Of a DNA stretch of 64,000 nucleotides, positions 2,520-37,219 are shown piece by piece. Under the pieces are notes generated by a model. The model saw only the letters and a program-made list of their open reading frames with translations. It did no database searches and was not told where the DNA came from. The DNA lies in the sequence record OR885871, one strand, 5' to 3'. Both the position numbers and the translations under genes were made by a program. The stretch is from Escherichia phage vB_EcoM_JN03. Within the stretch, counting starts at the first letter, position 1. Each line of letters starts with the position of its first letter.

Positions 2520-3134
2520 ATGACGATGACAACGTTGAAGGCCATGGCCTTGTCCGTGACCTTTACCATTGCCAGCGGGAATGTGCACGCTTCCCAAAAT
2601 ACAAGTCAATGTGTTTATGATTTCTCTGAGCAACAACTTAATACGCTGGCAACTGCCTATCACATAGGCAAGACGCAAGACCTTGGTTATACTCTGGCCG
2701 CCATATCTTGGCGAGAGAGCCGCGCTGGTGAAGATGTAGTGTCAATGCGATACGGTCTCAAGGCGGCCAACATGGGAGCCTTTCAGAACAAGGTGAAGAC
2801 AGTTGGTGATCGCGAGGGTTGTAAGAATCGCAAGTGCTATGCCAATGTCGCCATCAAGTTGTTGACCGACCAAGAATATGCCGCGCAAGCCGCCCTCGAT
2901 GAGATGCAGTTCTGGCTGACCTATCACAAGCAGAATGTACGCAAGTCTCTTTCCTCTTACAATGCTGGCTTCGCCCGTAATCCCGCATCGAACGCCTATG
3001 CCGCCGACGTCGTGAAGAAAGCTAAATATCTTCAGAAATGTGTGTCCTTCAAAGGGCGTTCCATCTCTGAGGTGGATCCTCAGGTGATCGCCATGAACAA
3101 GCGCACGATAGAGAAACTGAAGAGGACAAGATAA
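2520..3134 (+). CDS. secreted lytic transglycosylase-like protein (SLT domain)
   Basis: N-terminal signal-peptide-like segment; WRESRAG, GAFQ and SYNAG resemble SLT motifs ES / GLMQ / AYNAG. Confidence 0.45.
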   Translation: MTMTTLKAMALSVTFTIASGNVHASQNTSQCVYDFSEQQLNTLATAYHIGKTQDLGYTLAAISWRESRAGEDVVSMRYGLKAANMGAFQNKVKTVGDREGCKNRKCYANVAIKLLTDQEYAAQAALDEMQFWLTYHKQNVRKSLSSYNAGFARNPASNAYAADVVKKAKYLQKCVSFKGRSISEVDPQVIAMNKRTIEKLKRTR

Positions 3135-3772
3135 TGAACATCACTCCATCCCAGACCGGATATGAACATATCTTGGTCTTCATTGCCCTACAGGGTGCGA
3201 AGGAAGGCATCATCGTATCCGAGTATTCAGGTACGGTTCGCCTTGCTGACTACGTCGCGCCGGAGGCATTCATTAAGAAGTGCATTGATGCATGGTGCCT
3301 CTATGCCCTCGGCACGTATCCTGCTCCTCCTGATGGCGAGCTGTTGTTTACCGTACCGACTCCGGCTGCTGGCGATACAGACGCGATCTTTGCCGATATG
3401 CTGGCCAAGGGGTATCTGGTGTATGACATAACTCACGATGTCTATTCCTTCACCTCCCTGAACACTGTGTTTGGGTTCACCATAACCTCTGAAGCCAACA
3501 TCCCTGACTGGGGTATCTTGGCCTGGGGTGTTGACGGCCTGGGCGCAACCTACGCAACGTCTGATGTTGGTCCTGTTCTGATTGATGAGGGTGTAACCAT
3601 GGAGCAGTACCTTGCTCAGTTCCCCCAACACAACATCACGGGTAGCGATATCATTTTGGTCCAGCCTGGCGCTGTTGCCCTCCCCCGCCTCGTGGACGGA
3701 TGGAAGCCTCAGCTGAAGGACATCATTGCAGGGATCAGGTCCCATATTCCTGTGGTGAACCCAACACCGTAA
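3134..3772 (+). CDS. hypothetical protein
   Basis: TAATG coupling to upstream gene; no recognisable motif. Confidence 0.45.
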   Translation: MNITPSQTGYEHILVFIALQGAKEGIIVSEYSGTVRLADYVAPEAFIKKCIDAWCLYALGTYPAPPDGELLFTVPTPAAGDTDAIFADMLAKGYLVYDITHDVYSFTSLNTVFGFTITSEANIPDWGILAWGVDGLGATYATSDVGPVLIDEGVTMEQYLAQFPQHNITGSDIILVQPGAVALPRLVDGWKPQLKDIIAGIRSHIPVVNPTP

Positions 3773-3786
3773 AATAATTCAATAAA

Positions 3787-3806
3787 AGGGGCTTTCGCCC
3801 CTTTAC
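3787..3806 (+). terminator. rho-independent terminator
   Basis: GGGGC-TTTC-GCCCC hairpin then T-run. Confidence 0.55.
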
Positions 3807-3878
3807 TTCTTCAATATCCTTCCCTATACTTCATTCCATAAGCAGTACGACACCAACTTGAAACGAAGGAACTATATT

Positions 3879-4238
3879 ATGGCTATCACCACAAAAACTG
3901 AATTGAACGCGATCCTGAAAGAAGCTGGCTTCGGTAGTATCAAACGCCAGGGCAAGGTTTTACGCGATGGCGGTAAAATCGTAAAGGGTATCATGTTGGG
4001 AAGTACTGGCCCGTTGAGCATCAGCTCCCCTCAGTATGACAATCTTCGTAAACTGGCGCGTGAACTTCTCCAAGAAGACCTCCATATCACGACGCAAGAA
4101 ACCAATTATGTGGTTTTGGAATGCAACAAATTCATCGTCAGCCTTTACATCTGCAGCACCCGCTCATATCCGGTGTCTGAAGGTTATGACCCAATGTATC
4201 TGACCCATTATGCTCAGGTTACTGTCAAAGTAAAATAA
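3879..4238 (+). CDS. hypothetical protein (N-terminus MAITTKTEL)
   Basis: RBS AAGGA 9 nt upstream of ATG 3879; ORF-track start 3858 is TTG. Confidence 0.5.
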   Translation: MAITTKTELNAILKEAGFGSIKRQGKVLRDGGKIVKGIMLGSTGPLSISSPQYDNLRKLARELLQEDLHITTQETNYVVLECNKFIVSLYICSTRSYPVSEGYDPMYLTHYAQVTVKVK

Positions 4239-4322
4239 TCAAATTCAACGGGGGGCTTCGGCTCCTCTTTTGTTTTCGCTAATTAAGGAAAACCGCACCG
4301 ATTTATTATCAGGAGAATTACA

Positions 4323-6710
4323 ATGGCCATCCCATCTTTCTTGAACTTTCTTGAAGAGTCTAAACAATTAGACGAAGCGTTTAACTCATCCCCGTATGAA
4401 TTGACATTCGGCAAGAAGAACGCTGGTGACATTTTCTTCACATTTGTTGATGAAGACGAAAAAGAATTCCGTATTCAATTCTATACCCCACAAGGTCTAG
4501 GCAAGAATGTTCGCCAAGTCTTTATCGGTCAGAAGCGTGGTTCCACATATCCCGATGCCATCGGTCGTTTCAAGAATCCAATGCGTGTTATCGCATCCAT
4601 GATTGAAGCAACAAAGCAATTCATGGCGACGCCTTTGGGGAAAACCATTGACGGCTTTGCAATTAACTTCTCCAAGAAAGCATTGGAGCGTGGTGTTACC
4701 CTCCTGCCGAAGATTATCCGTCAGTCCGGCCTGAAGCAAAAGCTCAATGTCATGGACCTGACGTATACCCCTATCCCTGATCGTGCATTCGTATGGGTTG
4801 TGCGTAAAGGCAAGGATCCTGCTCAGGTATTCGATGGTCCGAAAATGAAAGGTGTCACATGGGATGATCCGGACAAAGTCGGTGACGTCCCGGTTCAGAA
4901 CAATACTCCGGATGTGGGAGTTGTGGCTGGTTCTTCTGAAATCGAAGTCAACCGCGATGACAACGGTTGGAAACTCACCAAAGCTAGTCGTACTCAGCCT
5001 ATGCTGGTCTGGTCTGGTAAAGAACGTGGGCGGACTATTACCGCCAATATCGCACCTCACGCGGATATACCTGGGGTGTATGCTGGTAGTATCATGAACG
5101 AGAAACGGATCCGCGCTCAATCTCCAGACGCTATTGTACGCCAACTGGGATTACCGCAGATCCCTGTGAATATTCTGAATGATTTCACCAAGCAGTCGTC
5201 CATCTTCTGGAAAGAGATGACGGGGGATTCTGGAAAAATAGACATGCAGAATTTGCCAAAAACAGGATCTGTGGATGACTTACGAAATCAGGGTTATATT
5301 GCTCGCCTTCTGGGGATTGTAGACACATATGCTCCACAACAGGTCGGTATGTATGCAGGTGAAAAACTAACACGAATCGGCGCGGGCAAATATCGTACTT
5401 CGGGTGGTCTGGACATTCAGGTTTATTTCTGGGGAATTGTCAACGGAAAACTTTCTGTAGAAGTAGTATCAGATTTGTCTGGTCATGACCAACTTATGCT
5501 GGAAGGAGATGTGAAAAACGCCGCTTATGAAATAGTGGGCGCAATCTCCCGTGCAGCCGATTCTCAATTTGCTGGAGAAGTAGAATGCCGTGTGGTTCCG
5601 ATCAATGGTGCCCCATATCCGATTCAAAAAATTTCCCGTTCTCAGGGATATTCTTACGTTGATTGTGGTTCTTTCACATTGAAGATCGCTGACGCTCTGC
5701 TGAATCGGTTTACCTTGGGCAAGGCGGTCAAACTTGATCTGATGAAAGAGTTTCCTCGTACAACATTCAAAGTCCGCTATGATTGGCGTGGAAAAGATAC
5801 TCTGTTGGTTCAATCTTCCGACGAGCGTACTATCTTTGGTGAAATCAACACCAATTCCAGTGAAAATGCAGTGATCACTGCAAACATCAAAGTGCCAAGC
5901 AATGCTAAATTTTTTGGTGAAACCGTTCATGGCTTCTCTGTAGCGTGGGATTTCCAGTTCCCTGCTGGTAGCAAGTTGCAAGCCGCAAGATTCGTTACCA
6001 ACGTAACTTACGATTTTGATCGAAACAAAGCCAACATCACCACCATGTTGGCTGAAAATGGTCGAAATGTAGTAGACAGCAATGGATATGATATTTCGTT
6101 GTCTGTCAAATCAGTGCAAGATGCATTGGATGAGATTTCTCGACGCCTGAAAGACGCGGCTTCGCAACTGAGCCACCTCAGTTCATCAAACTATAACCCT
6201 AACAATCTATTCCTGAATGACATCACTGTCAGTAAATTTGGCGCAATTATGTTCCAAGACAAAGATTTGGCACAGTCCAGGAACCGCACGGCAGTCATTG
6301 ATGCTCTGGCTCGGGCTAAAGATCAGGCTGCTGGAGGTAAGAATGCAGGTGATCTGGCCACCTATGCCGAATCCATTCGTGACAGCGCTCCTAATGGACG
6401 AGATCTGGATTGGCAGGTATACACAGCCAGTAATGGTACAGTTCTGAATGTTGCTTGGGATATCACTTTCCGTCGCAATACGACCGAAGGAGCATATCGT
6501 GAATTCAAGGATCAGATCAACCGTGCCAACCAATACCTGCAAACGGTATACAACGACGCGAAATCTAAAGGCTATAATCCTACCGTGCCAAATCTCATGA
6601 CTCTTGAACGCGCTCGCCAATCCGACGAATGGGCTATGAGTAATGGCGATAGTGCATACAGTGAATATGAACAATCGCTGGGCGGTAATCTTCAGATTAG
6701 TCTGAAATAA
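4323..6710 (+). CDS. large hypothetical protein (795 aa)
   Basis: Long ORF with RBS AGGAGA; no catalytic motif recognised. Confidence 0.55.
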   Translation: MAIPSFLNFLEESKQLDEAFNSSPYELTFGKKNAGDIFFTFVDEDEKEFRIQFYTPQGLGKNVRQVFIGQKRGSTYPDAIGRFKNPMRVIASMIEATKQFMATPLGKTIDGFAINFSKKALERGVTLLPKIIRQSGLKQKLNVMDLTYTPIPDRAFVWVVRKGKDPAQVFDGPKMKGVTWDDPDKVGDVPVQNNTPDVGVVAGSSEIEVNRDDNGWKLTKASRTQPMLVWSGKERGRTITANIAPHADIPGVYAGSIMNEKRIRAQSPDAIVRQLGLPQIPVNILNDFTKQSSIFWKEMTGDSGKIDMQNLPKTGSVDDLRNQGYIARLLGIVDTYAPQQVGMYAGEKLTRIGAGKYRTSGGLDIQVYFWGIVNGKLSVEVVSDLSGHDQLMLEGDVKNAAYEIVGAISRAADSQFAGEVECRVVPINGAPYPIQKISRSQGYSYVDCGSFTLKIADALLNRFTLGKAVKLDLMKEFPRTTFKVRYDWRGKDTLLVQSSDERTIFGEINTNSSENAVITANIKVPSNAKFFGETVHGFSVAWDFQFPAGSKLQAARFVTNVTYDFDRNKANITTMLAENGRNVVDSNGYDISLSVKSVQDALDEISRRLKDAASQLSHLSSSNYNPNNLFLNDITVSKFGAIMFQDKDLAQSRNRTAVIDALARAKDQAAGGKNAGDLATYAESIRDSAPNGRDLDWQVYTASNGTVLNVAWDITFRRNTTEGAYREFKDQINRANQYLQTVYNDAKSKGYNPTVPNLMTLERARQSDEWAMSNGDSAYSEYEQSLGGNLQISLK

Positions 6711-6761
6711 GTCATAGCCCCTTCGGGGGCTAAATACATCAAAATCCTTAGGAGATCCACG

Positions 6762-7307
6762 ATGAAACCGTTTATCGAATATTTTAAAGAACAAGCTCAA
6801 CAACCGCAAACACATGGCGGCATACAAGGCAAAAGTGTAACCATCACCAAACAGGCCGACGGAACCCAATGGTGTACTGGTGCCACCGTAACCCAGATCA
6901 CTCCAGATAATCAGGCCGACATCTATAATCTGGAATTGACTAATGGCAACACCATCAAAGTGAAGCTAACTCCAGACCAGACCCACGGCATTACCCAAGG
7001 CCAAGAAGTCGTTGCCGTCCATGATGGGTTTGAATTCTTCTTCGGCAAGTCGGCTGACAAAGGTCAGGTTACTGAAACGGAAGGCTGGCGTTTCGTCGGT
7101 GACCGTGGCGCTCATATTCTGATGTATGACGCAAAAGTTGGCGGTGCCTCCACTATCCTTCGCAGTCCAACAGATCGAACCAAATTTGTTGGTGGTCTCA
7201 TCAACGGCAGAAAAATTTTGGGTAATTCCCCAGAAGAACTGGCGGCAAAATTAGGTCTTCCAAAAATTCCTGATAATTTATTAAAATCATTTTTTGGTAA
7301 AAAGTGA
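6762..7307 (+). CDS. hypothetical protein, C-terminal motif shared with upstream 795-aa protein
   Basis: RBS GGAGA; C-terminus SPEELAAKLGLPKIPDNLLKSF. Confidence 0.5.
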   Translation: MKPFIEYFKEQAQQPQTHGGIQGKSVTITKQADGTQWCTGATVTQITPDNQADIYNLELTNGNTIKVKLTPDQTHGITQGQEVVAVHDGFEFFFGKSADKGQVTETEGWRFVGDRGAHILMYDAKVGGASTILRSPTDRTKFVGGLINGRKILGNSPEELAAKLGLPKIPDNLLKSFFGKK

Positions 7308-7321
7308 TTACAAAATACAAT

Positions 7322-7349
7322 CCCCCTAAATACAGGGGGATTTTCTTTT
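7322..7349 (+). terminator. rho-independent terminator
   Basis: CCCCCT-loop-AGGGGG then ATTTTCTTTT. Confidence 0.6.
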
Positions 7350-7362
7350 AGGGGTAAATATC

Positions 7363-7716
7363 ATGGTCAATGCGAGTATATTCATCAACCGTGGACTGCT
7401 TGCTATAGCCCACTCTCATGCCCTCCACTTCGTTACAACGTCCTATGCCAAGCACAAGGCGCTCGGGGAGTTCTACGGGGAACTGGAGGACTTGCTGGAC
7501 ACCTTTACGGAAGCGTATATTGGTGCGGGAGGTATATACATTCCAGGATTCGAGAACATCAAATTGTACAATCCTGAACCGATATCGTATATCAACAGCG
7601 TGGTCATCGACGTTAATGGGATCTACAATCAGTGTGATAGTCATCTTCAAAATACGCTTGACGAAATCAAGACTCTGTGCTATCAAACGATTTACAAACT
7701 GAAGCAATTGTCTTAA
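7363..7716 (+). CDS. hypothetical protein
   Basis: ATG ORF after terminator; preferred over antisense ORF 7348-7707. Confidence 0.4.
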   Translation: MVNASIFINRGLLAIAHSHALHFVTTSYAKHKALGEFYGELEDLLDTFTEAYIGAGGIYIPGFENIKLYNPEPISYINSVVIDVNGIYNQCDSHLQNTLDEIKTLCYQTIYKLKQLS

Positions 7717-7779
7717 CTCAATAGAACATCCTTCAGGTTATAATTTTGCCCATTCGTCATCAATAGGATACAGATAACA

Positions 7780-8397
7780 ATGGGCAAAATATTCATACCT
7801 TCGCATTCAGAAGGTTGTCAAATCGCTGCAAAATTTCTACACAAACAAATGAATTGTGGTGCTGTGTTCGTAGAACCAAATTCATTCGATAATCGTGAAT
7901 CCCCTGACGCCATCGGGTTCAGACCTGGGGGTTGTTCTATATTAATGGAAGTTAAAGTCTCCCGCGCCGACTTCCTGACAGACAAAAAGAAACCTCATCG
8001 CATGAATCCTTCCATAGGCATGGGAGCATATCGTTTCTATGTTTGCCCAGCAGATGTTATTAAAATTGAAGACCTCCCTCCCAAATGGGGTTTGTTGTAC
8101 TTCACCCCTAGAAAATCTTTGAAGCCCGTTCACGTTCCGAATATGCAATATTCCTCTTTGTCTTCACCGGAACATTATGCATCATATTTGTCTAAATCTT
8201 TGGGCAAAAGAAGACATACAGATATCCCTCCTTATCTATTAGGGTACAAACAGATGCTGGAAGAATTCGCCCACTTTGAACGCAATCAGGTTGCGGAACA
8301 AAATATTCTGTATGGGGCTTGGCGACAGCTTTGCATAGCTCAAAGTCGCGGGGTGGATTATAATGTGACAGAAGTGTTCCAGAGGCCAAATATCTAA
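7780..8397 (+). CDS. PD-(D/E)xK-type nuclease-like protein
   Basis: Motif PDAIGF...ILMEVK (PD-x12-EVK); stop overlaps primase start. Confidence 0.4.
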   Translation: MGKIFIPSHSEGCQIAAKFLHKQMNCGAVFVEPNSFDNRESPDAIGFRPGGCSILMEVKVSRADFLTDKKKPHRMNPSIGMGAYRFYVCPADVIKIEDLPPKWGLLYFTPRKSLKPVHVPNMQYSSLSSPEHYASYLSKSLGKRRHTDIPPYLLGYKQMLEEFAHFERNQVAEQNILYGAWRQLCIAQSRGVDYNVTEVFQRPNI

Positions 8398-9461
8398 TGA
8401 AATTCTTGGACGAACAATACATCAATTTTCTCGCCCCCCGACTTGATAAATTCAGTTGGGAACGTGTTGGCGCTGTCGCCAAATTTCGTTGCCCATTATG
8501 TGGGGATTCTAAGAAGAGTGCCAACAAGCGTCGTGGTCACTTCTTTTATGATCGTGATGACGATGTGTTTCGTTTCAAGTGCCACAACTGTAATGAAATG
8601 AGCGGTTGGGCGTTTGAATTCTGGTTGAAGAAGTTTGACGAGCGTCTGTATAATGAATACAACCTTGAAAAATTCAGGATCATGGGGGATACCAGTTCCC
8701 GCCCGTTACAAAAACTCAAACCACTACAGCGCCTGACCCAGACAGCACGTATCGGTTCTCAGGTCGCCAAACGGGATGAAGAGCACCTTGGGAATATGAT
8801 ACGCCTTGATCTTCTTGACCGTGATCATATCGCCCGTCGTTATGTTGAAGGCAGGGGTATGCCGGAGAGCACGTTATCTTTGTTGTATTACAGCAGGAAT
8901 TTTCGTCAAGATCTTCTGAGTTTCGAAACGGATGTTGAGAAGCAGAAGAAGATACCCGAAGATGAGCGGCTGGTAATCCCATTCTGGACCCAAGACGGGC
9001 GCATGAAGATAGTTCAGGGGCGCGCATTCGGCGATAACCTTCCTGATGGGGTATTACGGTATGCCACTGTCAAGCCTAAGAACGAAGATACTAAGATCTA
9101 CGGGGAAGAGCGCATCATTTGGAACAAAACAAAGTTGGTAGTAGAAGGTCCAATTGATAGCTTGTTTCTACCCAATTGTCTTGCGACTGCCGATGCCGAC
9201 TTATTAAGTGCTAAGGGAGACATCTATATCCCCGATAACCAATACAGGAACAAACAAGTTTGTGACGGTATACAGAAGATGATAGACAGCGGAGTCAAAG
9301 TCGTTCTGTTTCCACCGGAAATACCGTGGAAGGATATCAATGATATGGTTCACCCCGATAAGGGAAATATCCCGATACGTGATCTGCTTCAGATCATAGC
9401 CAAGAACGTATATCAGGGACTGTCGGCGTCCTTACGATTTTCTGACTTGAGGAAGATATGA
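8397..9461 (+). CDS. DNA primase (T4 gp61-like)
   Basis: Zinc ribbon CPLCGDS...CHNCN and Toprim-like VVEGPIDSLF. Confidence 0.7.
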   Translation: MKFLDEQYINFLAPRLDKFSWERVGAVAKFRCPLCGDSKKSANKRRGHFFYDRDDDVFRFKCHNCNEMSGWAFEFWLKKFDERLYNEYNLEKFRIMGDTSSRPLQKLKPLQRLTQTARIGSQVAKRDEEHLGNMIRLDLLDRDHIARRYVEGRGMPESTLSLLYYSRNFRQDLLSFETDVEKQKKIPEDERLVIPFWTQDGRMKIVQGRAFGDNLPDGVLRYATVKPKNEDTKIYGEERIIWNKTKLVVEGPIDSLFLPNCLATADADLLSAKGDIYIPDNQYRNKQVCDGIQKMIDSGVKVVLFPPEIPWKDINDMVHPDKGNIPIRDLLQIIAKNVYQGLSASLRFSDLRKI

Positions 9462-9667
9462 TGGATTTGAAAGAACTGAATAGTATGGACGATGAAGAGA
9501 TTCTTCGCGGGTATATGCAAGCCCGTGAAGGATATGTCCTATCTGGCTTAGAATCTAAGAGTTTCATCCATGGTTGGAGGAATGGAATGGTGGACTTCGG
9601 CGGTTGTCCTATCACTGAAGAACAAATGGATTTGGCTCGCCAGTATTTGAAAAAGAAGCCGACCTAA
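9458..9667 (+). CDS. hypothetical protein
   Basis: ATGA-coupled to primase. Confidence 0.4.
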   Translation: MMDLKELNSMDDEEILRGYMQAREGYVLSGLESKSFIHGWRNGMVDFGGCPITEEQMDLARQYLKKKPT

Positions 9668-9695
9668 AACTTTTTAACTCAAAAACCTTCTCTCT

Positions 9696-9720
9696 AGGCC
9701 TCATTCTACGAGGCCTTTTA
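9696..9720 (+). terminator. rho-independent terminator
   Basis: AGGCCTC-loop-GAGGCCT then TTTTA. Confidence 0.6.
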
Positions 9721-9866
9721 AAATACTTCAAAAATAATTTAAAAATTTATTGAAAAAGACTTTACTCTTCAATAATCATGCACTATTATAGTTCACATAG
9801 GGCGGTACACAACACCCCGCCGAATGAAAAGTGAAACGACCCAACTACATTATGAGGAATTACATC

Positions 9867-10355
9867 ATGGCTACTACCAAAACTCTGATCACCAACGGCA
9901 CCATCTCTTTTGAACTGAACACCGAAGTTGCAAAAGTTGAAATGTTCCGCATCGCTCAGGCAGCTGGCTTCACTGGTGGCAAAACTTCCTTCATGAATCT
10001 GCTGAACGGCAAAGTGAAAGCGACCAACGGCTTCACCCTGGTAGAGCAGGTTGTCGTAGACAAAGCCGTGGTTGCCAAGACTGCTGACAAGGTTGGCATG
10101 CTGAAAGACCTGGGCCATGACATCCACGTTGTCGAAGCGAACACCGAAACTTACGGCACCATCGTAGTCGGTAAAGGTCGCATTCAGCTGAACCCGCTGA
10201 ACAACGGAACCTTCTCCGTGATGGTATTCCCGAAAAAGGGTTATGACAACAGCGATATCGTGAAAGCCGCTGGCGGTGAAGCGAAATCCCAGTATGTCAA
10301 AATGGGTAAACTGAGCGCCGACGCAGTAGAAACTCTGGTGAACAAACTGGCTTAA
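9867..10355 (+). CDS. hypothetical protein (N-terminus MATTKTL), likely abundant
   Basis: RBS GAGGA 7 nt upstream of ATG 9867; preceded by partial duplicate of its initiation region; ORF-track start 9831 is GTG. Confidence 0.5.
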   Translation: MATTKTLITNGTISFELNTEVAKVEMFRIAQAAGFTGGKTSFMNLLNGKVKATNGFTLVEQVVVDKAVVAKTADKVGMLKDLGHDIHVVEANTETYGTIVVGKGRIQLNPLNNGTFSVMVFPKKGYDNSDIVKAAGGEAKSQYVKMGKLSADAVETLVNKLA

Positions 10356-10361
10356 CCGCAA

Positions 10362-10385
10362 GGGGGAAACCTCCCCCTTTCAAAG
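10362..10385 (+). terminator. rho-independent terminator
   Basis: GGGGGA-AACC-TCCCCC then T-run. Confidence 0.6.
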
Positions 10386-10405
10386 TTTTGGTAGGAGAAT
10401 GAGAC

Positions 10406-10594
10406 ATGAGTAGAGCAATTATCCAAGCCTCTCCTGGCGCTCTATGGGTTGCCGACCGAATTCCCAACGCGCACTTTCCTCAGTTCCAAGAGGAACTGGA
10501 ACAAGCGATGTTGAAAATATTTGAAAAATATGGGTATGATTCCGAAGTTAGGACTTCCTTCAAAGAAATCATGCCTATCGTCGTAGTCAGATAA
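10406..10594 (+). CDS. hypothetical protein
   Basis: RBS AGGAG upstream of ATG. Confidence 0.35.
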   Translation: MSRAIIQASPGALWVADRIPNAHFPQFQEELEQAMLKIFEKYGYDSEVRTSFKEIMPIVVVR

Positions 10595-10663
10595 TCGACA
10601 CTAAATCCTCAAGTTCGACTTTCACTTTAAATACCTTCGCATACATTGCGGAGGTATTTTCTT

Positions 10664-11458
10664 ATGGCCATTCTAAAACTTGGCAACCGAGGTTCTGAAG
10701 TCAAAGCACTTCAACAAAGCCTCAACAAAATCGGTTTCTCCCTTACAGCCGATGGCATATTTGGTAAGGCAACAGAGAATGCTGTCAAATCCGTTCAGGC
10801 AGGTGCTGGATTGGTTATTGATGGTATTGCTGGGCCAAAGACCTTCTATGCTATCCGCAACGCTGGAGACGCTCATCAGGAACATCTGACCGAAGCGGAC
10901 TTGGTTGACGCAGCACGTGAACTTGGTGTTGAGCTGGCCAGTATGAAAGCTGTGAATCAGGTAGAATCCCGTGGCACAGGTTTTACCAAAACTGGCAAGA
11001 TCAAAACTCTGTTTGAGCGCCACATCATGTACAAAAAGGTGACGGCCAAATTCGGGCAAGCAAGAGCCAATGCTCTGTACCAACTCTACCCAACATTGGT
11101 TAACCCCAATTCTGGCGGGTATATCGGCGGAGACGCGGAGTTGGAACGCCTTCAGGGTGCAATCGCCCTTGACGAGGACTGCGCTTACGAGAGTGCTTCC
11201 TACGGCCTATTCCAGATCATGGGGTTCAACTGCCAAATCTGTGGCTATTCAAATGCCAAAGAGATGTTCACTGATTTCCTGACTGGTGAACGCGCTCATC
11301 TTCTGGCATTTGTGAAATTCATCAAAGCTGACGCCAATATGTGGAAAGCCCTGAAGAATAAGAATTGGGCCGAGTTTGCTCGTCGGTACAATGGTCCGGC
11401 ATATGCGAAAAACCAGTATGATACTAAACTGGCGGCAGCATACAAGAGTTTCTGCTAA
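10664..11458 (+). CDS. endolysin: peptidoglycan-binding domain plus muramidase-like (DUF3380-type) domain
   Basis: N-terminal LKLGNRGSEVKALQ...DGIFG...TENAVKSVQ; C-terminal ESRGTGF / YGLFQIMG; RBS GGAGG before ATG 10664. Confidence 0.7.
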   Translation: MAILKLGNRGSEVKALQQSLNKIGFSLTADGIFGKATENAVKSVQAGAGLVIDGIAGPKTFYAIRNAGDAHQEHLTEADLVDAARELGVELASMKAVNQVESRGTGFTKTGKIKTLFERHIMYKKVTAKFGQARANALYQLYPTLVNPNSGGYIGGDAELERLQGAIALDEDCAYESASYGLFQIMGFNCQICGYSNAKEMFTDFLTGERAHLLAFVKFIKADANMWKALKNKNWAEFARRYNGPAYAKNQYDTKLAAAYKSFC

Positions 11459-16179: not shown

Positions 16180-16207
16180 AAGCCCCTAACCCAGGGGCTT
16201 TACTTTT
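16180..16207 (+). terminator. rho-independent terminator
   Basis: AAGCCCCT-loop-AGGGGCTT then T-rich. Confidence 0.55.
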
Positions 16208-16274
16208 CAAAAACCTGGTTTATAGTATTCTAGGTCACGGCAACAACGCCACATTTGACCAGAAGGACTATATC

Positions 16275-16661
16275 ATGTATCTGAACACACCAGCCGTATT
16301 AGAAGCCACCATCTCTTTCCCTATCCAAGGCCTGGCGAAGTCCAGAGCGTTCCTTAAACAAGTCCCCTTTGCGTTTAACGTCCACGGGGAGAGATACCCG
16401 CGCTCTATCCTGCGTGCCCTGCGTGATGCCCTGCGTAACGGGGCGGCGCTGACCAAGGAAGAGTTGCGATCTAAAGAAGTGCACATGATCGACCCGGAAC
16501 TGTTATCTGAAGAACCAGAACTGTACCAAGATTTCCAAAACGACGCCCGTAAAGCTCAGCTGATGTACGAGAACGACCAGCTGATGTTCAAGAAGGGCGA
16601 TGACGCTCTGTACGTGGTAGACAAGGGCACAAACCTGCCTCTGGTACTCTTCATCAAGTAA
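16275..16661 (+). CDS. hypothetical protein
   Basis: ATG ORF followed by terminator. Confidence 0.4.
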   Translation: MYLNTPAVLEATISFPIQGLAKSRAFLKQVPFAFNVHGERYPRSILRALRDALRNGAALTKEELRSKEVHMIDPELLSEEPELYQDFQNDARKAQLMYENDQLMFKKGDDALYVVDKGTNLPLVLFIK

Positions 16662-16668
16662 CCCGACC

Positions 16669-16695
16669 AGCCCCTCATCGAGGGGCTTTACTTCT
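16669..16695 (+). terminator. rho-independent terminator
   Basis: AGCCCCTC-ATCG-GAGGGGCT then T-rich. Confidence 0.55.
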
Positions 16696-16765
16696 ATAAA
16701 TCCTGCGCTTATACTTCCCAGTAATTCATTGGCCAACGCCACAAATTGAAAGCGGGTACTACATC

Positions 16766-17008
16766 ATGACCAACTCTGAAATATATCATGCTTCTATGCA
16801 TTATCACGACCTACGCGCCCGTCCAGGACACGCCAAACAAAAAGCATTCTGGGTGGCAGAACTCAGATTACGCCGTGCTGTCGTTAACCACCAAATAATC
16901 ATGAACCGAAGCAATGAAAAATCTCCTCTGTTAGCCGATTCTTATCTTGAACTCCGTACAGCTTATGAACAAGCCTCGGAGCACGTAATAGGGGCACAAA
17001 ATGTCTAA
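16766..17008 (+). CDS. hypothetical protein
   Basis: Small ORF in tightly coupled run. Confidence 0.35.
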   Translation: MTNSEIYHASMHYHDLRARPGHAKQKAFWVAELRLRRAVVNHQIIMNRSNEKSPLLADSYLELRTAYEQASEHVIGAQNV

Positions 17009-21757: not shown

Positions 21758-22220
21758 TATTCAGCAGGTACAAGACGTCATCCTTCAACGCCTTCGCGCT
21801 GTGATCACAAATGAAAGGGGAGAAATTGCGCCAGGGTTTGAAGGCGCATTCGACGGTTTCGTTGCTGATGATCAGGGGAACCCCGTTGTACAAACGATCG
21901 CTGGCATGATTATGCTGAATAGCGAATTTATGGCTGATGGTAAAATCCATTATTCACCCAATCTCAGTGTTGACGGAGAATCTTTGGCTTCCGAAGTGGT
22001 TGATTTAACGGTTGCCGTTGGTGAGTTGGGTTATGTTTTGATGGTTTGCACCGCGCATTATGTGGACGCCAACGGCCATGTGTCATATGGTGATGAGGCG
22101 CGAGGGGTCAAACGTCATGTGGACACTTCTGCATTACTGCAACAGATACGTCAGATGCAAGAAGAAATGGACTCCAAACCTCGCCTGATTTTACCGGAAA
22201 GCAAAATCGTCACCAGATAA
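21735..22220 (+). CDS. hypothetical protein
   Basis: Start moved to in-frame ATG 21735; ORF-track start is upstream. Confidence 0.4.
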   Translation: MPNVERADIQQVQDVILQRLRAVITNERGEIAPGFEGAFDGFVADDQGNPVVQTIAGMIMLNSEFMADGKIHYSPNLSVDGESLASEVVDLTVAVGELGYVLMVCTAHYVDANGHVSYGDEARGVKRHVDTSALLQQIRQMQEEMDSKPRLILPESKIVTR

Positions 22221-22269
22221 TCCGGTCTAAATACCCATAACACAATGAAACTTCGTTATGGGTATTTTT

Positions 22270-22869
22270 ATGAAATTTTGCGGAATCGACTATTCTTACG
22301 GCTGTCCAGCCATGTGCTTCTGGGACGACAAAGATCCTCTGGATTTTGATCATCTTCATTTCTATGCACACCATACCGTTGAGAAGCACTGTCGTCAAGT
22401 GCGACACAATATTCTTATTTTACGTCAACCCAAATATGAATCCCCCGAAGAACGGTTTTATAACATTTCCAAATGGGCTGAAGCCGTACTTCTTACGGAG
22501 AAGCCGGATTTCATCACCCTAGAAGGCTATGCTATGGGGAATTCAAAAAACTCCAATAACATATGCCAAACCGCCGAGAACACATCTCTATTGAAACAAG
22601 CGATGCGCCGGAACAATATGGAATTTCAGATTGTTACCCCGTCTTTTGTTAAGAAACATTTTTGTGGTAAAGGAAATGCCGACAAATTGGTCATGATAGA
22701 TCACTTTGAGAAGCTGTTCAACGTTAAGATGCGCGGTATAATGGACATGTTGGACGTGAAGGATCCAAAGCCAATCGATGACCTCGTGGATTCGTTCGCA
22801 AATATGGTTTCTGGTCCTTACTTCATAGAAAATTATCCTGATTTCAATAGAGGTGTAAGAAATGATTAA
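22270..22869 (+). CDS. hypothetical protein
   Basis: Starts MKFCGIDYS; ATG 22258 lies in a hairpin arm, so ATG 22270 preferred. Confidence 0.35.
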   Translation: MKFCGIDYSYGCPAMCFWDDKDPLDFDHLHFYAHHTVEKHCRQVRHNILILRQPKYESPEERFYNISKWAEAVLLTEKPDFITLEGYAMGNSKNSNNICQTAENTSLLKQAMRRNNMEFQIVTPSFVKKHFCGKGNADKLVMIDHFEKLFNVKMRGIMDMLDVKDPKPIDDLVDSFANMVSGPYFIENYPDFNRGVRND

Positions 22870-27843: not shown

Positions 27844-28016
27844 TATTCACGCCAGTCCGCGCTGATACAGCGTTCCGTTGTCTAACACAGAAGTGTTAAC
27901 CAACTTTTCAATAAAAAGTGGTTTACATCTTCTAAAAAGGCAGTATATTAATGTTCCAGACGCACAGTTGAACATTAGACTGCCAAAGAAGGTTACTACA
28001 CAAAAGGGTTTTTATT

Positions 28017-28976
28017 ATGTCCTATATTCTTCATATCGAGTCCGGCCTGAAATTTGAAATTGATGGTAAAACCGCTGCTGATCTTCAAGCAGAAATCAAA
28101 GGTGCAGACCTTATCATTGGCAATGTAACATTACGCCGTATGATGGAAGGCGTCCTCCAGTCAGCCAACGGCTTTGAACTCATTGAAGGTCTGAGCCAGG
28201 AAGAGAAAGAAGAAACTCTCGAAGCTCTTGACCGCGCTGAAGCCGAAAAAGTTAAACCGACCGAAGATGCGGGGGTTAAACAGGGCGACGGTGAATCAAA
28301 TCCGGTGATTGACGCCGAAGAAACGGTTGGGCAACCTGTCGGTGATCAAAATTCCCAGACCGTCGAAGACGGTTCTCTTGAAGTCAACAAAGACGGTTCC
28401 ATTTCCCTGGTAGTTGAAGGCGAAGAAGTTCTTGACGAAGAAGCGCAAGCCCGTGCTGAAGAAGTTCGCCGTCGCATGCTGGGCACAACCGTTGCTGAAG
28501 CAATCGCCGACGTTGAAAATCCGAAGGATGATCAGGCTTTAGCGAACGCGAAGGCGGTTCTGGCCAAGAAATCTTCTGAAATGCGCCCTGCATCTTCTAC
28601 CGAAGAACGCAAGCGTCGTCATAACAAGCGTGAAGAAATGGTTGAAGCGGCTCGCGCATCCAATTATGGTCCTATCCTGGCTGCGGTTGAATCGGGGGTT
28701 GTGCCTGGGGTTTATTTGAGCTATGTGAATCCGGATATGCGCTGGTTCCAGTTCCCTGTTACCGAATTGGCAGATGAAGCCAATCCACACGCCCGCACCA
28801 ATACTTATGTTGATCTGGCGCCGATCGTTTCCGGCGGCTGGGGGTTCAGTCTGTATGTGAATGGTAAATCATTCACCAAACGCCAGAAAATCAAAGAAAC
28901 TGATGCCGAATCTCTGGTGAAAGCAATCAATGAATGGTTACCACAGGCGTTGGCCGAAGCGAAAGCTGCTGCGTAA
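28017..28976 (+). CDS. acidic hypothetical protein
   Basis: 319 aa, D/E-rich; followed by terminator. Confidence 0.45.
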   Translation: MSYILHIESGLKFEIDGKTAADLQAEIKGADLIIGNVTLRRMMEGVLQSANGFELIEGLSQEEKEETLEALDRAEAEKVKPTEDAGVKQGDGESNPVIDAEETVGQPVGDQNSQTVEDGSLEVNKDGSISLVVEGEEVLDEEAQARAEEVRRRMLGTTVAEAIADVENPKDDQALANAKAVLAKKSSEMRPASSTEERKRRHNKREEMVEAARASNYGPILAAVESGVVPGVYLSYVNPDMRWFQFPVTELADEANPHARTNTYVDLAPIVSGGWGFSLYVNGKSFTKRQKIKETDAESLVKAINEWLPQALAEAKAAA

Positions 28977-35945: not shown

Positions 35946-36025
35946 AATAAAACTTTACTTCAATAAAACTTGCGGCTATCATTTATCCTACATTGAAAAG
36001 TTTCACTACATCATGAGAGGCAAAA

Positions 36026-37219
36026 ATGAAAGCCAAGACCTTCAGCATCCCAATTGATAATATTGGTCGTGTCAAGGAACGTCTTGCCAAACTTGAAAGA
36101 ACGGCAAACCGCCTGAAACTCGAGTTCCCTCTTGTTGAGTTCAGTGAACCATACAAAACACAACATCGCGATTCTATCACTGGCGAAAAATTTTTTCGTT
36201 GGTGGCAAGATTGTACTCTAACTGGTGAAGGCATCGACCGCCCCGTTTCCTACGGCGGGTGGAGCATTATTGGACAATTCAATCACCAATATCCAAAAGT
36301 CATCTTGAATAAATTAGCAGATGACATCCACCCAAATTTCGTTCAAAGATTCGAAGCCGAAAACGTGTCTTGGTGTGAGCATTGTAATAAATCTGTGCGT
36401 CGTCATAACACATATGTTGTTCGTAACGAACAATCTGGCGCACAGATGCTCGTGGGTAGCAGCTGCATGCATCATTATGTTCCGCATCAGAAATCGCTTG
36501 ATGCAGTTATGTCTTATTACATGTCTATTCACGAAATGTTTACTCCCGATGAAGATGACCCAGAAGGGATTTATCGGGTTAATGAACCAGATTATGTTGA
36601 CACAGAAGGATATTTGCGTAAATGCTTTCAGGTTTTGCTGTCCGGCCTGAGCATTAAAAGTGATGATTTTGGTCGAGTTCTTGGTCATATCTCTAGCGGC
36701 ACTCGTCCGGAGAAAGGTTCTGACATTGATATATTCTATAACAAGGCTGTTAAAGCCCGTGAAGATGCTCAATCAGAGATGTATCATATGATGCTTTTCA
36801 TCGCATCGTTGTCTGAAAATAACGATTTCAACGTCCGGCTGAAACGTATGTGCGAACCTGGTTATCACCTTGTTAAAGACTCAACAACAGTTCGTTGGGG
36901 AGCAGCAAAGTATTATGATTATATCCACACCCCCCGCCAAACGCGCACTGTATCAAATTGGGTTGGTGAAGTTGGTGAAATGTTAGAAGCACAGGTCAAA
37001 TTTGAAGCAAGGATTTTCCTGTATTCATCTGATTATGGTGACACGTATCTGTATACTTTCAAAACCAAGGAAGGCAATACCATTACATGGAAGACTTCCT
37101 ATATGGAAACCGAGTTTTTAGAAGGCGATATGATCATTCGAGGTCGTGTCAAAGAATTGACCGAATTCAAAGGTATTAAACAAACTCAGATTACAAGGGC
37201 AAAACTGAGGAAATTATGA
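36026..37219 (+). CDS. hypothetical protein with Cys/His cluster
   Basis: 397 aa; WCEHCNKS...GSSCMHHY. Confidence 0.45.
   Translation: MKAKTFSIPIDNIGRVKERLAKLERTANRLKLEFPLVEFSEPYKTQHRDSITGEKFFRWWQDCTLTGEGIDRPVSYGGWSIIGQFNHQYPKVILNKLADDIHPNFVQRFEAENVSWCEHCNKSVRRHNTYVVRNEQSGAQMLVGSSCMHHYVPHQKSLDAVMSYYMSIHEMFTPDEDDPEGIYRVNEPDYVDTEGYLRKCFQVLLSGLSIKSDDFGRVLGHISSGTRPEKGSDIDIFYNKAVKAREDAQSEMYHMMLFIASLSENNDFNVRLKRMCEPGYHLVKDSTTVRWGAAKYYDYIHTPRQTRTVSNWVGEVGEMLEAQVKFEARIFLYSSDYGDTYLYTFKTKEGNTITWKTSYMETEFLEGDMIIRGRVKELTEFKGIKQTQITRAKLRKL

Follow-up and report, generated by a model that had tools for sequence, protein, structure and literature searches.

Why do two phage genes that encode unrelated proteins begin in almost the same way? 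The question arises from genes A (3879-4238) and B (9867-10355), which lie on the + strand of a 64-kb stretch of DNA from Escherichia phage vB_EcoM_JN03, referred to here, as a whole, as the window. The original prediction for this DNA held that the two genes share an upstream sequence, a ribosome-binding site (RBS) context, and the first residues of their products, and it suggested that this reflects either a common translational operator or an N-terminal peptide that targets both proteins. The analysis described here favors an element of another kind. Very probably, what stands in front of each of the two genes is a copy of a repeated regulatory cassette of ~100 nt, which is specific to the Ackermannviridae and which is both reused and recombining among these phages.

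A megablast search with positions 3000-11000 assigns the window to the genus Kuttervirus of the Ackermannviridae, with Salmonella phage SPTD1 as the best match at 98% identity, and the 272 phage records that are matched are all Ackermannviridae-like. The phage shares core genes with T4, yet it belongs to a different family. Gene A is equivalent to open reading frame (ORF) 125 of SPTD1, and gene B is equivalent to SPTD1 ORF143, CBA120 orf104, and bering_93. All of these are hypothetical proteins in the records, and for SPTD1, bering, and CBA120 GenBank gives the same start codons as those taken here, at 3879 and 9867. The strings on which the prediction was built are indeed present, GAAACGAAGGAACTATATTATGGCTATCACCACAAAAACT at 3860-3899 and GAAACGACCCAACTACATTATG AGGAATTACATCATGGCTACTACCAAAACT at 9833-9884, and patterns constructed from them match just these two sites in the window. 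Such a pattern test is circular, and an unbiased comparison of all pairs of starts was therefore made. The SPTD1 genome (157 kb) was joined from four annotated pieces, all 211 annotated starts were extracted, and the 22,155 possible pairs were scored for similarity. The initiation regions of A and B (-45 to +24) score 20 against a mean of 8.0 (standard deviation 1.9), which ranks the pair 13th, and the region further upstream (-125 to -20) ranks 30th. The first eight codons by themselves rank 19th at the nucleotide level. At the amino-acid level, residues 2-8 of A and B tie with 20 other pairs among the 211 proteins, which places the peptide match by itself in the chance tail of the proteome. 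Most of the pairs that outrank A and B belong to the same network of cassettes, including A with ORF030, ORF028 with ORF295, and ORF030 with ORF295. In a multiple alignment that includes relatives, the upstream regions of A and B are colinear from the -35 box to the ATG. The noncoding similarity between the two genes is real, and the shared initiation region that had been noticed extends well upstream.

The proteins themselves are, as had also been claimed, unrelated beyond their first residues. A remote homology between them was considered and rejected, as BLASTP returns no alignment and profile-profile comparison by hhalign gives a probability of just 1-2%. The faint match that hhalign does produce aligns residues 4-30 of A with residues 21-53 of B around a helix-Gly-Phe/Tyr-Gly element, and this lies away from the N-terminus of B.

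The cassette has a regular order, with an A/T-rich box or G/C hairpin followed by a predicted sigma-70-type promoter, a leader of 50-80 nt, and the initiation region. The 5' part consists of a TTCAATAA box together with an A/T-rich stretch and/or a G/C hairpin. The promoter pattern is made up of TTTACT, a 17-nt spacer that harbors a second TTCAATAA box, and then TATACT, TATAAT, or TATTAT, and the initiation region conforms to the stereotyped form (T)TGAAAnGnAGGAACTAYATYATG. Within the window, TTTACT(N)CTTCAATA is present at 3802 and 9761 only. At gene A, the upstream TTCAATAA box is read at 3778-3785 and is followed by a G/C hairpin (3784-3804), whose stems GGGGC (3788-3792) and GCCCC (3797-3801) are flanked by an A-tract and a T-tract. 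The T-tract overlaps the -35 element of gene A, and the hairpin probably terminates the upstream late gene; the same arrangement of a hairpin followed by TTTACT recurs at two further cassettes, C and D. The predicted promoter of gene A (3802-3830) comprises a -35 element, TTTACT (3802-3807), a 17-nt spacer with TTCAATAT, and a -10 element, TATACT (3825-3830). The leader (3831-3878), which is predicted to be unstructured, contains the Shine-Dalgarno sequence GAAGGA at 3865-3870 and ends in TTGAAACGAAGGAACTATATT. An intrinsic terminator is predicted downstream of the gene at 4250-4267.

At gene B, the predicted promoter and its A/T-rich upstream region (9747-9789) are kept in 20 related loci. 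This segment contains an inverted box, TTATTGAA (9747-9754), the -35 element TTTACT (9761-9766), a TTCAATAA box (9768-9775), and the -10 element TATTAT (9784-9789). The leader of gene B bears a hairpin near its 5' end (9801-9821), formed by GGCGG (9801-9805) and CCGCC (9817-9821). The loop of this hairpin differs among relatives and the stem is invariant, and the structure could stabilize the mRNA or bind a factor. The A/T-rich stretch is found at B, at cassette E, at SPTD1 ORF030 and ORF295, and also in the copies of cassette A carried by phages Menlow, maane, and PC3; the window's cassettes A, C, and D have a hairpin in its place.

Gene B differs from gene A in having a double start. Its cassette-type initiation motif, TGAAACGACCCAACTACATTATG (9832-9854), has CCC in place of the Shine-Dalgarno sequence, and because of this replacement the ATG at 9852 is probably unused. 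That ATG is followed by AGGAATTACATC-ATG, in which the predicted working signals (9855-9869) are a Shine-Dalgarno AGGA, the spacer ATTACATC, and the start codon. This arrangement had been described as a partial tandem duplication. Two 15-nt units are certainly present, but just 10 of the 15 bases are alike, and only in Kuttervirus does the second unit look like the first. The layout itself, in which the cassette ATG lacks a Shine-Dalgarno sequence and AG(A)GG with the real ATG comes next, is found at 20 of 20 related gene-B loci, the most distant of which have 54% protein identity, with the upstream ATG out of frame at loci L016-L021. It recurs at the unrelated cassette E, where positions 36005-36028 read ACTACATCATG-AGAGGCAAAA-ATG. 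Its presence at all of these places indicates that the double-start layout is old and recurrent. At gene B, the cassette's own Shine-Dalgarno sequence would thus have decayed, with a second Shine-Dalgarno sequence and ATG, 15 nt downstream, being used instead.

Neither cassette is confined to these two genes. An nhmmer profile of the cassettes, searched against the window and SPTD1, finds six copies in the window. Each lies on the + strand and ends exactly at an ATG. Cassettes A (3779-3881) and B (9746-9854) are joined by cassette C (16184-16277), which precedes ORF C (16275-16661; 128 residues) in an indel module that SPTD1, CBA120, and most relatives lack, and by cassette D (16672-16768), which precedes ORF D (16766-17008; 80 residues), the equivalent of SPTD1 ORF153.6. 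A weaker copy (27913-28019) stands in front of an ORF of 319 residues, equivalent to SPTD1 ORF175, with which it extends to 28976. Cassette E (35947-36015) ends in ACTACATCATG without a Shine-Dalgarno sequence, continues with AGAGGCAAAAATG, and leads an ORF of 397 residues (36026-37219) that corresponds to SPTD1 ORF196. In SPTD1, further full copies precede ORF030, ORF295, ORF080.6, and ORF080.3, and copies of the initiation region only precede ORF028, ORF296, ORF297, ORF081, ORF085, and ORF065. SPTD1 carries at least 10 cassette copies. With this number of copies per genome, the element has to be seen as a family of promoter/leader cassettes and not as a private operator of two genes. The suggestion of a shared regulatory element thus holds in that A and B do have one in common, and it is larger than was supposed, encompassing promoter, leader, and RBS, but the element does not belong to these two genes alone. 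A and B are very probably coregulated. The proteins encoded behind the cassettes are mutually unrelated by BLASTP. They gave no match in Pfam or PADLOC searches and are ORFans, and when A, B, and the remaining ORFs behind cassettes were compared with PHROGs and PDB sequences, unnamed PHROGs and otherwise nothing significant came back.

The individual parts of the cassette are enriched in much the same positions. The promoter pattern TTTAC[AT]-N16-18-TA[TAC][AT][ACT]T has 11 matches in the 157-kb SPTD1 genome against 3.4 expected from Markov-1 simulations, and 8 of the 11 are intergenic (a fraction that makes up 7.7% of the genome), correctly oriented, and located 49-78 nt 5' of a start. ACTAYATYATG, with at most one mismatch, is found at the start of 16 of the 211 SPTD1 genes. 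The octamer TTCAATAA, counted in either orientation, has 42 copies in SPTD1, 29 of which fall in the intergenic 7.7%. It flanks the -35 box on both sides, typically with one copy just 5' of a terminator hairpin and another right behind the -35, and it is a candidate protein-binding box. SPTD1 also encodes a TF1-like protein (ORF101). In terms of relatedness, the closest relative of cassette A is the cassette of ORF030, outside the window, ahead of that of gene B. All 272 matching records carry an A-type cassette, and almost every one has two to three BLAST-detectable copies of the 84-nt A cassette, which is explained by the closeness of the ORF030 copy.

Alignment of both loci across related phages, which the original prediction had proposed as a check, finds the cassettes conserved at the A loci as well as in the 20 related gene-B loci, and it is here that their mobility becomes apparent. 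The same cassette is found in front of gene A or its homologues in several settings. In the window and in phage SeSz-1, gene A lies between a DUF7270 gene and a gene for a protein of 795 residues. In Klebsiella phage Menlow, the homologue follows the major capsid gene, and in maane and PC3 it has the tail sheath gene on one side and a homing endonuclease gene on the other, where endonuclease-driven co-conversion may help to move the module. Conversely, the gene-A slot of Kutterviruses holds three unrelated ORFs behind the same cassette, including CBA120 orf112 and bering_86. Cassette A exists with two variants of its -10 and early leader, which occur in every combination of upstream context and downstream allele, and phage 38 pairs the window's gene-A allele with the other -10/leader variant. 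The module of cassette C and ORF C (488 bp, 16184-16671) is present in only ~15 of 191 Kuttervirus records. CBA120 has at this site a single chimeric cassette, its 5' part like C and its 3' part like D, with the crossover between the -35 and -10 boxes, and SPTD1 likewise has a single chimeric cassette at the position of 16184-16671. Recombination breakpoints therefore fall inside the cassette.

Conservation is also concentrated in the cassette. At the gene A loci, identity is 82-88% in the cassette vs 54-58% in the coding sequence, and at the gene B loci it is 86-88% in the cassette vs 59% at third codon positions. Between Kuttervirus and Taipeivirus-like loci (9790-9851 of the window; loci L003-L022), the leader of gene B shows ~100% identity over the stretch that runs from the -10 box to GTGAAACG, and to judge from this alignment it is clearly under purifying selection.

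Taken as a mechanism, the cassette would make any ORF that lies behind it autonomously transcribed, efficiently translated, and probably early. The many near-identical copies within a genome and across coinfecting relatives would act as homology patches, which the recombination machinery of the phages could use to insert, delete, and replace small ORFans. The likeness of A and B would then reflect common ancestry of their cassettes, upheld by selection on expression and by recombination among the copies. Some points weigh against this interpretation. The searchable literature contains no transcription data for the Ackermannviridae, and so promoter activity, its early timing, and the transcription start sites, along with terminator function and translation efficiency, are deduced here from sequence only. 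A and B are among the more diverged pairs of the family, with ~60% identity over the aligned cassette and with indels, and their homology in the middle of the leader depends on alignment through intermediate members. That the gene-B leader is so strongly conserved in different genera hints that it does something sequence-specific beyond merely staying unstructured, for which a mobile cassette does not account. Finally, the copies within operons that consist of the initiation region only, such as those of ORF297 and ORF028, could be due to convergent selection on the RBS.

Of the other explanations, that of an operator is compatible with the cassette and adds to it. It states that the initiation region TGAAAnGnAGGAACTAYATCAUG is an operator or enhancer that is bound by a phage factor, for example of the RegA type, and that controls a regulon of early ORFans. 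In keeping with this, at least 16 genes have the motif across their AUG, some of them operon-internal and without a promoter of their own, the spacer of the motif is more stereotyped than a Shine-Dalgarno sequence alone demands, and ACTACATNATG is retained at B and E even though it no longer gives a Shine-Dalgarno sequence or a start codon there. The purifying selection on the gene-B leader would fit as well, and SPTD1 encodes a RegA homologue (ORF059; 21975-22439 of locus L029, outside the window; PF01818, E = 4e-35), which adjoins gene 62 as in T4. However, the motif is missing from the starts of the orthologues of T4 RegA targets (44, 45, 62, and regA), and also from 43, 32, and 41. T4 RegA sites are A/U-rich, and the cassette motif does not resemble them. 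The five leaders that were folded have z-scores near 0 and no significant structure, an Rfam scan of the whole window gave no match, and the conservation is already accounted for by cassette mobility together with selection for efficient initiation. With leaders that are unstructured, without an Rfam match, and with RegA-target orthologues that lack the motif, the translational operator first proposed for A and B is not supported, and an operator of this type is considered rather unlikely. The broader possibility that the cassette carries dedicated operators that define a coordinately switched early-ORFan regulon is also judged improbable. Two elements could serve in this capacity: UGAAAnGnAGGAACUAYAUCAUG could be the RNA target of a phage regulator, the RegA homologue being the obvious candidate, and the paired TTCAATAA boxes that flank the -35 could be bound, in DNA with hypermodified thymidine, by a phage protein that brings about shut-off, for instance the TF1-like protein.

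Convergence would require that the initiation regions of A and B had been optimized independently for strong translation, through AAGGA, a G-free A/T/C spacer, and GCU or ACN second codons. General preferences of the genome lean in this direction, as the genome-wide spacer consensus is T-A-T-A-T-C, positions +4/+5 favor A/G and then C, MA is the commonest N-terminus (38 of 211 proteins), and initiation-region-only copies exist inside operons. Yet A and B remain alike and colinear beyond the RBS, across the leader, the -10, the spacer box TTCAATAA, and up to the -35; the motif is missing from core genes of replication and structure, which likewise depend on being translated well; and breakpoints of recombination are found inside the cassette. 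Convergence is thus regarded as very unlikely. Even less can be said for the shared peptide as a targeting or processing signal, akin to the capsid-targeting sequence of T4 internal proteins, and this is thought to be extremely improbable. A and B do share M-A-(I)-T-T-K-T, TK[TS] is found within the first eight residues of just A and B among the 211 proteins, and a MATTKT start is present in one metagenomic member of family A. In both families, however, the start is variable, as MTKTELN, MTKSEIN, MNKTQIN, MKITKSQIN, and others in family A, and as MATTKT, MKTIKT, MTKSIQ, and MTNSKT in family B, and the window's A allele is set apart by an insertion of 9 nt, GCTATCACC, behind its ATG. The similarity at the peptide level is, as noted above, equaled by 20 other protein pairs. 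In AlphaFold models, domain 1 of B opens with a beta-strand made up of residues 2-9 (ATTKTLIT), whereas TKTELNAILKE of A runs into a helix at 6-15. Neither family has a conserved (L/I)-x-E protease site after the peptide; the LKE of A (residues 13-15) is LKD, LNV, or LKT in relatives, and there is no such site near the N-terminus of B. Both genes have predicted early sigma-70-type promoters, and the late-promoter motif of the genus, CTAAATA, is absent from the 130 nt upstream of every cassette gene. The published virion proteome of LIMEstone, which bears indirectly on the virion association that the original prediction had wished to see checked, contains the products of neighbors of both genes and lacks the A and B homologues. 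A targeting peptide that is not conserved among homologues, that falls in different elements of the two models, that is expressed from predicted early promoters, and that has no virion evidence is not upheld, and the resemblance of MAITTKT to MATTKT is most likely coincidental. More generally, when short N-terminal peptides are shared next to regulatory DNA that is itself repeated, they can be a by-product and need not be a signal. Gene conversion between the starts of A and B was considered as a source of the 9-nt insertion in A and was rejected, the longest exact shared runs being 7 nt and 6 nt.

The products of the two genes are both basic, with isoelectric points of 9.1-9.3. Gene A (3879-4238) encodes an ORFan of 119 residues that belongs to phrog_13016 and represents a variable allele in a hypervariable slot. 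Its family amounts to 16 representative clusters in an exhaustive phmmer search of 1.8 billion proteins and extends, by tblastn, to T4-like Proteus phages; a search of IMG/VR with protein A gave no confirmed locus, the family having been found by tblastn and phmmer. The gene-A allele of phage 38 (locus L033, 286-645) has a 1-nt deletion after codon 9, which is either a sequencing error or the mark of a pseudogene, and the record annotates just a truncated downstream ORF. Gene B (9867-10355) encodes a protein of 162 residues (phrog_3764) that is modeled as two alpha/beta domains. It is conserved across the Ackermannviridae and confined to Ackermannviridae-like phages, with 61 clusters down to 47% identity.

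A few observations concern the annotation of this and related records. The gene at 2520-3134 has been given the label 'RegB' in phage bering, which looks doubtful; it has a borderline Pfam match to SLT (lytic transglycosylase; E = 3.7e-4, below the cutoff) and an internal late-promoter motif in SPTD1. In the SPTD1 record, OP991882.2, the minus-strand features called 'Kuttervirus late gene promoter' are offset by 7 nt, the real CTAAATA lying immediately 5' of each. OR844944.1, 'Enterococcus phage Efm 3-10' (38.5 kb), carries Kuttervirus sequence that is 98-99% identical to the window, and MN871475.1, 'Pseudomonas phage Pa-sanjiao', has an 84.5% match to the 84-nt A cassette. Both records are probably mislabeled or contaminated.

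The cassette has a bearing on how ViI-like and other Ackermannviridae phages, which are used in biocontrol and as reporter phages, express their genes. TTTACT-N17-TAtAnT, together with its TTCAATAA boxes, is a candidate class of early promoter for these phages. The CBA120 genome paper reported that early promoters were not identifiable by informatics (PMC3184105), the LIMEstone paper listed just five putative early promoters (PMC3296691), and a 2024 review of the Ackermannviridae makes no mention of promoters; the CBA120 and LIMEstone genome papers were the only literature found on promoters or transcriptomes of the family. Shuffling mediated by the cassettes would explain the hypervariable small-gene slots among Kuttervirus genomes. 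The cassettes may also mark natural, tolerated insertion sites with a ready expression context for engineered payloads.

In some respects the cassette resembles the early promoters of T4, which are found with a consensus RBS (Liebig & Rueger 1989, cited in PMC3184105; review PMC2988021). Both combine an upstream A/T-rich element with a -35 and a -10 in what is, or is predicted to be, a strong promoter, and those of T4 capture the host RNA polymerase immediately after infection. The gene-A homologue of a T4-like Proteus phage sits behind a GTTTAC-type promoter. Unlike the T4 promoters, the cassette has no evident TGn extended -10. Alt, MotA, and AsiA are absent from the ViI-like phages (PMC3184105). 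The operators of T4 RegA are comparable in that a related sequence overlaps the AUG in several early mRNAs and a RegA homologue is encoded, but here the motif is not found at the orthologues of RegA targets and RegA binding is only conjectural. The loci of T4 internal proteins IPI-III are similarly plastic, and they too specify unrelated small proteins that have a conserved 5' gene end. In T4, however, the conserved part is a targeting peptide that is cleaved from proteins that are packaged, whereas in the cassette genes the conserved part is noncoding.

The closest known counterparts are the promoter-early stem-loops (PeSLs), mobile regulatory cassettes of T4-type phages (Arbiol et al. 2010, PMC2839356; Comeau et al. 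2014, PMC4122927), whose authors proposed that PeSL-like motifs shuffle the internal protein loci of T4. Like the cassette, PeSLs contain an A/T-rich stretch, a sigma-70-like promoter, a GGGG..CCCC stem-loop, and a Shine-Dalgarno sequence and ATG at the 3' end (PMC2839356, PMC4122927). They too have many copies per genome, mainly before ORFans, and are associated with indels and replacements between close relatives in which the crossovers fall inside the element, in PeSLs between the -10 and the Shine-Dalgarno sequence. The Kuttervirus cassettes display each of these features, with a predicted promoter spaced by 16-18 nt, a stem-loop, an A/T-rich stretch, a Shine-Dalgarno sequence and ATG, multiple copies before ORFans, and internal breakpoints; what they do not share is a T4-type host genome, as they reside in the Ackermannviridae. 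Their stem-loop is placed directly 5' of the -35 (A, C, and D) or in the leader (B), whereas that of most PeSLs lies between or over the -35 and -10, and the TTTACT -35, the conserved TTCAATAA boxes, and an unusually stereotyped leader and initiation region are specific to the cassette. PeSLs are, furthermore, known by their promoter and terminator activity and by mini-circles, whereas the cassette is known here as sequence. Because Kuttervirus lies outside the T4-type phages, the cassette is best filed as PeSL-like and not as a PeSL in the strict sense. The cassette-mediated shuffling of small genes described for T4-type phages therefore appears to operate in a separate phage family too.

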